This document shows positions 22,107 to 22,207 of a stretch of DNA of 64,000 nt, in pieces. The DNA comes from a virus (lineage: Duplodnaviria; Caudoviricetes). Under the pieces are notes generated by a model that saw only the letters and a list, made by a program, of their open reading frames with translations, was not told the DNA's origin and ran no database searches. The translations under genes and the position numbers were made by a program. Positions within the stretch are counted from its first letter, which is position 1, and each line of letters begins with the position of its first letter. The DNA is taken from IMG/VR virus record IMGVR_UViG_3300029288_000097, positions 1-64,000 of that record. One strand, given 5' to 3'.

Positions 22107-22180
22107 GGCGAATGTAGCTCAGAGGTTAGAGCACTGGGTTGTTGCTCCAGAGGTCGCGGGTTCAATCCCCGCCATTTGCC
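22107..22180 (+). tRNA. tRNA with GTT (Asn) anticodon on a His-type body (G-1:C73)
   Basis: cloverleaf G-GCGAATG TA GCTC..GAGC A CTGGG TTGTTGC TCCAG AGGTC GCGGG TTCAATC CCCGC CATTTGC C; followed by CTA, not CCA. Confidence 0.85.
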
Positions 22181-22207
22181 CTACCCTAAACAAGAGAGGT
22201 GATTCAA

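Follow-up and report, generated by a model that had tools for sequence, protein, structure and literature searches.

A phage tRNA of tRNA-His descent with an asparagine anticodon

A tRNA gene in a tailed-phage genome poses a question of identity: its anticodon, GTT, reads asparagine codons, while its acceptor end carries the marks of a bacterial tRNA-His. Is it a tRNA-Asn that supplements decoding, a tRNA-His altered by a single base, or a molecule that places the wrong amino acid at asparagine codons? The virus record that holds the gene comprises 113,976 bp at 45.5% G+C and is complete according to CheckV; the window, as we use the term, is the whole stretch of DNA analyzed, namely the first 64 kb of that record, and the tRNA, its parts and the adjoining tmRNA all lie on its plus strand. 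We find that the gene descends from a tRNA-His and that the base that changes its anticodon is real. As for what the change means to the phage, our preferred reading, at a probability of roughly 0.6, is that an accessory and dispensable phage tRNA-His gene underwent an alloacceptor anticodon shift that is private to this lineage, recent and probably of no adaptive value.

A His-type tRNA body with a GTT anticodon

The tRNA body (positions 1–73) occupies 22108–22180, as located by ARAGORN, by cmscan with Rfam model RF00005 and by direct reading. It is preceded by an encoded G-1 (22107), a HisRS determinant found in all three orthologues described below, which lies opposite the discriminator C73 (22180). 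G1 (22108) pairs with C72 (22179), and the anticodon arm reads CTGGG/TT GTT GC/TCCAG, with G34-U35-U36 at 22141–22143 and G37 at 22144. Each of these features, from which the original prediction had argued for a tRNA with His identity elements and an Asn anticodon, is present by direct reading. The gene scores 66.8 bits against the full tRNA family model (model positions 1–71; gathering score 29), all 22 of its 22 cloverleaf pairs are standard, G-1:C73 included, and the minimum-free-energy fold is the cloverleaf itself (−33.1 kcal/mol, z −2.58). As had been foreseen, annotation by anticodon files the gene under asparagine, with ARAGORN calling it Asn(GTT). The 3′ end, read earlier as an oddity, is indeed CTA (22181–22183), whereas the other two RNAs, the tmRNA and a tRNA-Gln (25996–26070), encode CCA. 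One feature had escaped the original prediction: G3 (22110) and U70 (22177) form a G3·U70 wobble, which is the major AlaRS determinant.

The proposed comparison of His and Asn isotype models was made with profiles built from 28 tRNA-His and 27 tRNA-Asn genes of one bacterial phylum, which was arrived at by chance and carries no implication about the host. Every one of these tRNA-His genes (28/28) has G-1, G1, G37, the loop TTGTGG(T/A) and C73-CCA, so that within this single phylum the combination of G-1:C73 and a GTG loop is the tRNA-His hallmark that it was said to be. The companion statement, that tRNA-Asn has G73 and A37, stands for G73, present in almost all of the 27; for A37 it gains no independent support, since A37 and C32 were fixed by the search pattern. 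The same tRNA-Asn genes have U at position 1 in 27/27 cases and G at −1 in 1/27. Scored against the two profiles, the window gene favors His over Asn by 45.0 to 23.7 bits, by 40.9 to 16.2 bits with the anticodon masked, and by 33.4 to 15.5 bits with the whole loop masked. True tRNA-His genes score 10–27 bits on the Asn profile, a cross-isotype background that contains all of the Asn scores of the window gene, and the body is therefore of His type, in agreement with the orthology described below. BLASTN matches of the tRNA to cultured phages were rejected as an isotype signal, as they comprise Asp, Pro, His, Asn, Gly and Met tRNAs.

Base 22143, at tRNA position 36, could also be checked as had been proposed, using contigs assembled by Logan from public runs and aligned on 21600–22900. 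The best run, X1, a 2019 landfill metagenome that is probably the source sample, gives a 1856-nt contig (depth 9.3) with zero differences over 22022–22900. Run X4, which belongs to another study and is a wastewater metagenome of 2025 with a library labeled RNA-Seq and marked as probably DNA, gives two 151-nt contigs (depth 6.9) that are identical to the window over 22018–22167 and 22155–22304. Because identical contigs come from two studies, the T at 22143 and with it the GTT anticodon is not an assembly error; moreover, the presence of the GTT haplotype in samples of 2019 and 2025 implies that it is at least not strongly harmful. Many other contigs cover 22124–22165 with loose ends of His type (G-1 at the 5′ side, C73-CCA at the 3′ side), and no anticodons were inferred from these.

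Orthologues and the direction of change

Immediately upstream of the tRNA is a phage tmRNA (21674–22100; ARAGORN; Rfam RF00023, 130 bits) with the tag ANTDNSGVSQSIVDQINARDRVGSEEMLLAA and an encoded CCA end, which is probably its co-transcript. A 6-nt spacer, AATGTG (22101–22106), leads from the tmRNA CCA end to G-1, and position 1 of the tRNA lies 7 nt past that end; the stretch AAATGTGGG at the spacer is retained in L015 and L020, the two tRNA-bearing relatives discussed below. A scan for promoters and terminators around the tRNA returned nothing above chance, and none between the tmRNA and the tRNA. A dUTPase gene (22425–22853), with phage-like relatives at 64–80% identity, lies 250 nt downstream. 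On the other side, a putative HAD-family (GmhB-like) open reading frame (21098–21703) extends into the tmRNA over its first 30 nt, with the coordinates of both confirmed. Elsewhere in the genome, outside the window at 111298–111374 (contig L003), ARAGORN predicts a tRNA-Ser whose anticodon, ACT, is unnatural and whose acceptor stem is mismatched; it scores 48 bits against the Rfam tRNA model.

The relatives are contigs fetched through matches to this dUTPase. The gene order tmRNA, tRNA, small open reading frame, dUTPase is common to the window, to L015/L116 and to L020. The L015 dUTPase is 80% identical to that of the window, and L116 is a second contig with an identical tmRNA–tRNA stretch; the dUTPase of L020, a 112-kb contig, is 70% identical to the window's. 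In L015/L116 and in L020 the tRNA is a tRNA-His(GTG) with C70 and an encoded CCA. Its position at the same place in the gene order in L015 and L020 identifies the window gene as the orthologue of a phage tRNA-His, and the difference between GTT in the window and GTG in these two relatives is an alloacceptor anticodon shift as defined by synteny. The earlier suggestion that a single base (G36T) separates the gene from an ordinary tRNA-His is thus borne out, both by syntenic GTG orthologues and by a profile that remains His-like even when the anticodon is masked.

Only three orthologues of the tRNA were found. The tmRNA has orthologues in L015, L116, L020, L187, L193 and L192, the last three of which keep it with no tRNA, and the contigs numbered L016–L025, L020 apart, have neither RNA. 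An IMG/VR relative reached through a beta-helix protein (G001), with which the phage has 13 reciprocal-best proteins in common at 44% identity, also has no tRNA. Judging from these contigs, the tRNA is accessory and dispensable in the clade. A further observation concerns the dUTPase region of L192 (L192:2105-5023), where a DUF559 gene is inserted directly after the tmRNA and a pair comprising an IS605-type Y1 transposase and an OrfB/Cas12f-like TnpB lies directly after the dUTPase; the tmRNA–dUTPase interval appears to be an insertion hotspot.

Identities among the tmRNAs (window–L015, 86.9%; window–L020, 67.3%; L015–L020, 73.2%) make the window and L015 sisters and L020 the outgroup. With L020 as outgroup, GTG, C70, CCA and a 12-nt duplication at the 5′ side of the tRNA are ancestral, and GTT is derived. 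Conservation in related phages had been proposed as a check on the gene, and here the answer goes against a conserved design, as GTG in both tRNA-bearing relatives marks GTT as a private, lineage-specific mutation. On the window branch, G36 changed to U (GUG to GUU, 22143), C70 to U (G3-C70 to G3·U70, 22177) and C75 to U (CCA to CUA, 22182); an L015-like relative in run X3 has C in place of T at both 22177 and 22182. Within and beside the inner anticodon stem and loop (22136–22149), alignment of the three orthologues shows that U29-A41, present in both relatives, became G29-C41 (22136/22148), a compensatory change; that pair 28:42 (22135/22149), U·G or C-G in the relatives, is now U-A; and that G31-C39 became G31·U39 (22138/22146). 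Some loop changes and the loss of the 12-nt duplication also fall on this branch.

The lost 12 nt are a tandem copy of G-1 and the 5′ acceptor strand, and both relatives carry them, within L015:598-693 (the same in L116) and L020:3722-3814. At the cloverleaf position the copy is an imperfect partner, with U4·U69 and U5·U68 in L015 and with U4·U69 and G5·U68 in L020; RNAfold prefers the upstream copy in both relatives, and there its pairing with the 3′ strand is perfect. Covariation of position 2 with position 71 is seen in either copy (A, A and T in L015; C, C and G in L020). The duplication in the GTG orthologues may provide an alternative pairing that affects processing. The window tRNA has a single, perfectly pairing copy of the acceptor strand.

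Plain decay, which the original prediction had listed among its possibilities, fits these data poorly: the window copy is the best formed of the three orthologues and has gained a compensatory stem change. Its Rfam tRNA score is 66.8 bits, compared with 62 and 58 bits for the GTG relatives. When the three genes are aligned, standard pairs fill 95.5% of pair cells, five pairs have changed on both sides, and unpaired cells occur only in the relatives. Five substitutions at paired positions fall on the window branch and all five keep pairing; as the change from U-A to G-C is a double transversion that has no possible wobble intermediate, the fold has been under selection for most or all of this branch. 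Nor is the branch disproportionately long for the tRNA, with 10 branch-specific changes in the window compared with 5 in L015, when set beside 34 and 10 for the tmRNA. The evidence thus speaks against advanced decay. Among the roughly ten branch-specific changes, three fall at identity or maturation positions (36, 70 and 75), and these could represent remodeling instead of drift.

Searches for similar tRNAs place the shift in a wider context. Exact-pattern scans for the tRNA with any base at position 36 gave zero matches in viral, genome and metagenome contigs, and intermediate haplotypes that combine the window-type acceptor junction with GTG or GTT were absent from the viral contigs. Scans for the pattern U32-U33-GUU-G37, with C73-CCA as an added requirement in one and the D-arm GTAGCTCAG in the other, yielded no further viral tRNA and, among 185,579 species genomes, one GTT tRNA, in a Candidatus Krumholzibacteriota metagenome-assembled genome (G002). 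As its orthologues within the same phylum have GTG in 28/28 genomes, this GTT is either a sporadic mutation, and so a second natural G36T, or a consensus error of the assembled genome. The G002 gene (L254:1470-1545, the same as L216:3079-3154) is chromosomal and of His type, with G-1, C73-CCA and the loop TTGTTGT, and lies just after a tRNA-Arg(TCT); the assembled part of that genome contains no tRNA-His(GTG) and no ordinary tRNA-Asn.

Two looser patterns were rejected. One, the 17-nt anticodon arm with K at position 36, matched at 10 viral sites, not one of which is a tRNA, and a 16-nt spacer/acceptor pattern gave more than 120 metagenome and 41 viral matches, nearly all by chance, with L116 the sole true relative. 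Three Rhizobiales records encountered along the way (L208:4733-4808, on the Nitratireductor plasmid pMM01; L218:1863-1938; and L227:7106-7182, from Oricola) have G at −1, C73-CCA and the loop ATTGTTG, and ARAGORN calls them Thr(TGT) with U37, a His-type acceptor end joined to a non-His anticodon. Rhizobiales tRNA-His reportedly has neither G-1 nor C73.

Conflicting identity signals and possible roles

What would charge such a tRNA? Bacterial HisRS recognizes G-1, C73 and the anticodon G34-U35-G36; AsnRS relies on the anticodon and G73; AlaRS reads G3·U70 together with A73, G2-C71 and G4-C69; and the Asp-tRNA(Asn) amidotransferase requires U1-A72 and is blocked by G1-C72 and U20a (PMC9976931). 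By these rules, the window tRNA would send conflicting signals, with G-1:C73 directing it to HisRS, G34-U35-U36 to AsnRS or a non-discriminating AspRS, and G3·U70 to AlaRS, and it would present HisRS, AsnRS and AlaRS each with an incomplete set. It has the G-1:C73 and the descent of a tRNA-His without the GUG anticodon, the GUU anticodon of a tRNA-Asn with C73, G37 and G1-C72 in place of G73, A37 and U1-A72, and the G3·U70 of a tRNA-Ala with C73, C2-G71 and A4-U69 in place of A73, G2-C71 and G4-C69. Decoding is a second matter. tRNAs that read ANN codons carry t6A at A37, a base that the window tRNA does not have, and U36 beside G37 makes a poor TrmD substrate; a tRNA that has neither t6A37 nor m1G37 should be a weak reader of AAY codons.

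In the private, non-adaptive shift that we favor, the changes of G36, C70 and C75 to U and the loss of the 12 nt took place on the branch of one lineage. The tRNA would probably still be transcribed, given its intact body, and would be co-transcribed with the tmRNA, given that no promoter or terminator separates the two. RNase P would then cut so as to leave G-1 on the tRNA, as G-1 is able to pair with C73, and host enzymes would trim the CTA tail and add CCA. Genes for a HisRS, for a class IIb (Asn/Asp/Lys-type) synthetase and for a CCA-adding enzyme are all missing from the 114-kb phage genome, and both charging and CCA addition must therefore rest on host enzymes. The phage would have lost a spare tRNA-His and gained at most a weak, ambiguous AAC/AAU decoder, a shift that could be tolerated because the gene is accessory. 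Two observations sit awkwardly with this account. First, the window copy has the best structure of the three and a double compensatory change, which points to continued selection on the RNA. Second, the GTT haplotype persisted from 2019 to 2025, and the changes at 36, 70 and 75 can be read as remodeling.

An unlikely alternative, yet the one that survives best, is a true switch of identity, in which AsnRS charges a working tRNA-Asn that provides extra AAC/AAU decoding. GUU is the full anticodon set for AsnRS, and a tRNA-Lys given this anticodon and G73 accepts Asn (PMC9976931). There is precedent for alloacceptor shifts caused by anticodon mutation (PMC3923123, PMC4783518), and on the window branch the structure has been kept and indeed improved. 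In the phage, Asn codons outnumber His codons about twofold (3.87% vs 2.03%), a ratio whose meaning depends on the host; the large terminase, whose best matches among cultured phages are at or below 25% identity, points to no host. Nevertheless, the window tRNA has gained no Asn feature outside the anticodon, as the bases at positions 73, 37 and 1 set out above make plain; its Asn profile score is at background, and the retained G-1:C73 favors HisRS. If the host uses the indirect pathway, moreover, G1-C72 and the U at 20a would act as antideterminants for the amidotransferase (PMC9976931).

Deliberate mistranslation, in which His (through G-1:C73) or Ala (through G3·U70) is put at Asn codons and either harms host proteins or diversifies phage proteins, strikes us as improbable. 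Single determinants can be potent: G-1:C73 alone gives His acceptance to mini- and microhelices, and G3·U70 alone gives Ala acceptance to tRNA-Tyr and tRNA-Phe (PMC9976931). Bacteria are known to have dedicated mistranslating tRNAs, including an Asn anticodon on a Pro body (PMC10404621), and the phage tRNA is intact, in a haplotype that persists across years. A phage that relied on His at AAY codons, however, would be expected to have Asn codons where its relatives have conserved His sites. We counted window Asn against relative His, Ala or Asp sites in both directions across 11 related loci and G001, and window Asn/relative His sites are no commoner than the reverse, with the same result for Ala and with no asymmetry for Asp. 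The insertion of His at AAC/AAU codons suggested by the original prediction therefore meets neither an Asn excess at the His sites of relatives nor a dedicated synthetase, unlike the tRNAProX/ProRSx pairs. In addition, GTT is not conserved, with GTG in the closest tRNA-bearing relatives and no gene in others; the HisRS set has lost its G36, and the AlaRS set is without A73, G2-C71 and G4-C69; and the missing t6A37 or m1G37 leads one to expect weak AAY decoding. The specific version of a phage-delivered mistranslator, with G-1 kept, CCA added by the host, His or Ala charged and inserted at AAC/AAU, and the changes at 36, 70 and 75 and the improved acceptor stem all selected, is a long shot.

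A role apart from decoding likewise has a slim chance of being correct. The tRNA fold could serve as an RNase P signal that sets the 3′ trailer of the tmRNA, or the tRNA could be a decoy or bait for a nuclease, either of which would leave the anticodon free to drift. The 7-nt distance from the tmRNA CCA end, the uninterrupted interval between the two genes, and a structure that is conserved while the anticodon is not are all in keeping with such a role, and phage tRNAs that counter anticodon nucleases are known (PMC10264068, PMC11555353). Yet L187 and L193 have a tmRNA and no tRNA, and the two RNAs of L020 lie about 200 nt apart, which indicates that tmRNA maturation does not require the tRNA. 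The idea of a nuclease decoy or escape variant, also raised in the original prediction, finds no nuclease or defense context here, and the escape variants described in published work alter loop bases and keep the anticodon (PMC10264068). Finally, an error at 22143 that conceals a normal tRNA-His(GTG) is suggested by the one-base difference from the relatives and by the similar GTT of the assembled genome G002, which may be such an error, but has a negligible probability given the exact match of the X1 and X4 contigs across the tRNA and several further window-specific changes around 22143.

Known systems and what the gene means

Comparison with known systems helps to define what the phage gene is. 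It resembles a bacterial-type tRNA-His in its encoded G-1 opposite C73, its G1-C72 pair, U32-U33 and G37, its His-like body and its syntenic orthology, and differs in having GUU for GUG, G3·U70 for G3-C70 and a CCA that is not encoded. With the alloacceptor shifts, or remolding, described by Rogers and Griffiths-Jones in 2014 (PMC3923123) and in metazoan mitochondria (PMC4783518), it shares an orthologue shown by synteny, an anticodon altered by point mutation and an ancestral-like body. Those cases, however, are eukaryotic nuclear or mitochondrial, often follow duplication, and involve remolded tRNAs that are demonstrably functional, whereas ours is a single accessory phage gene in one lineage.

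Two other systems offer partial parallels. In the yeast mitochondrial tRNA-Thr(UAG), a tRNA-His gene was also the source of a tRNA that reads for another amino acid, and there, loss of G-1 removed His identity and a threonyl-tRNA synthetase co-evolved (Su et al. 2011, PMC3113583); the window tRNA, by contrast, keeps G-1:C73. The tRNAProN and tRNAProT of Streptomyces and Kitasatospora, with their ProRSx (Schuntermann et al. 2023, PMC10404621), likewise combine an Asn-reading anticodon with a body and an acceptor end that belong to another amino acid's tRNA. They form conserved families, usually beside a dedicated ProRS isoform, and their mistranslation has been demonstrated (PMC10404621), whereas the window tRNA is a singleton with no partner synthetase, and is not the conserved dual-identity tRNA with partner synthetase that makes up a dedicated mistranslation pair.

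What, then, does this gene mean for the phage and for how such genes are read? Annotation by anticodon would count it as codon supplementation by a tRNA-Asn, when it is a tRNA-His derivative whose charging is unpredictable from sequence. It provides a clean natural example, polarized by two orthologues, of how a phage tRNA can undergo an alloacceptor anticodon shift in one step, and its combination of HisRS, AsnRS and AlaRS signals on one intact tRNA makes it a handy natural substrate on which to ask which determinant wins. The evidence so far marks it as a private variant whose importance is modest, since the relatives show GTG; it is not a trivial one, being intact, persistent and equipped with three competing identity signals. 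Were it to act as a phage-delivered mistranslator, it would be the first case of a natural, virus-borne tRNA that mistranslates Asn codons as His or Ala. More broadly, if the tRNA is charged and used, viruses would join the short list of carriers of mistranslating tRNAs.
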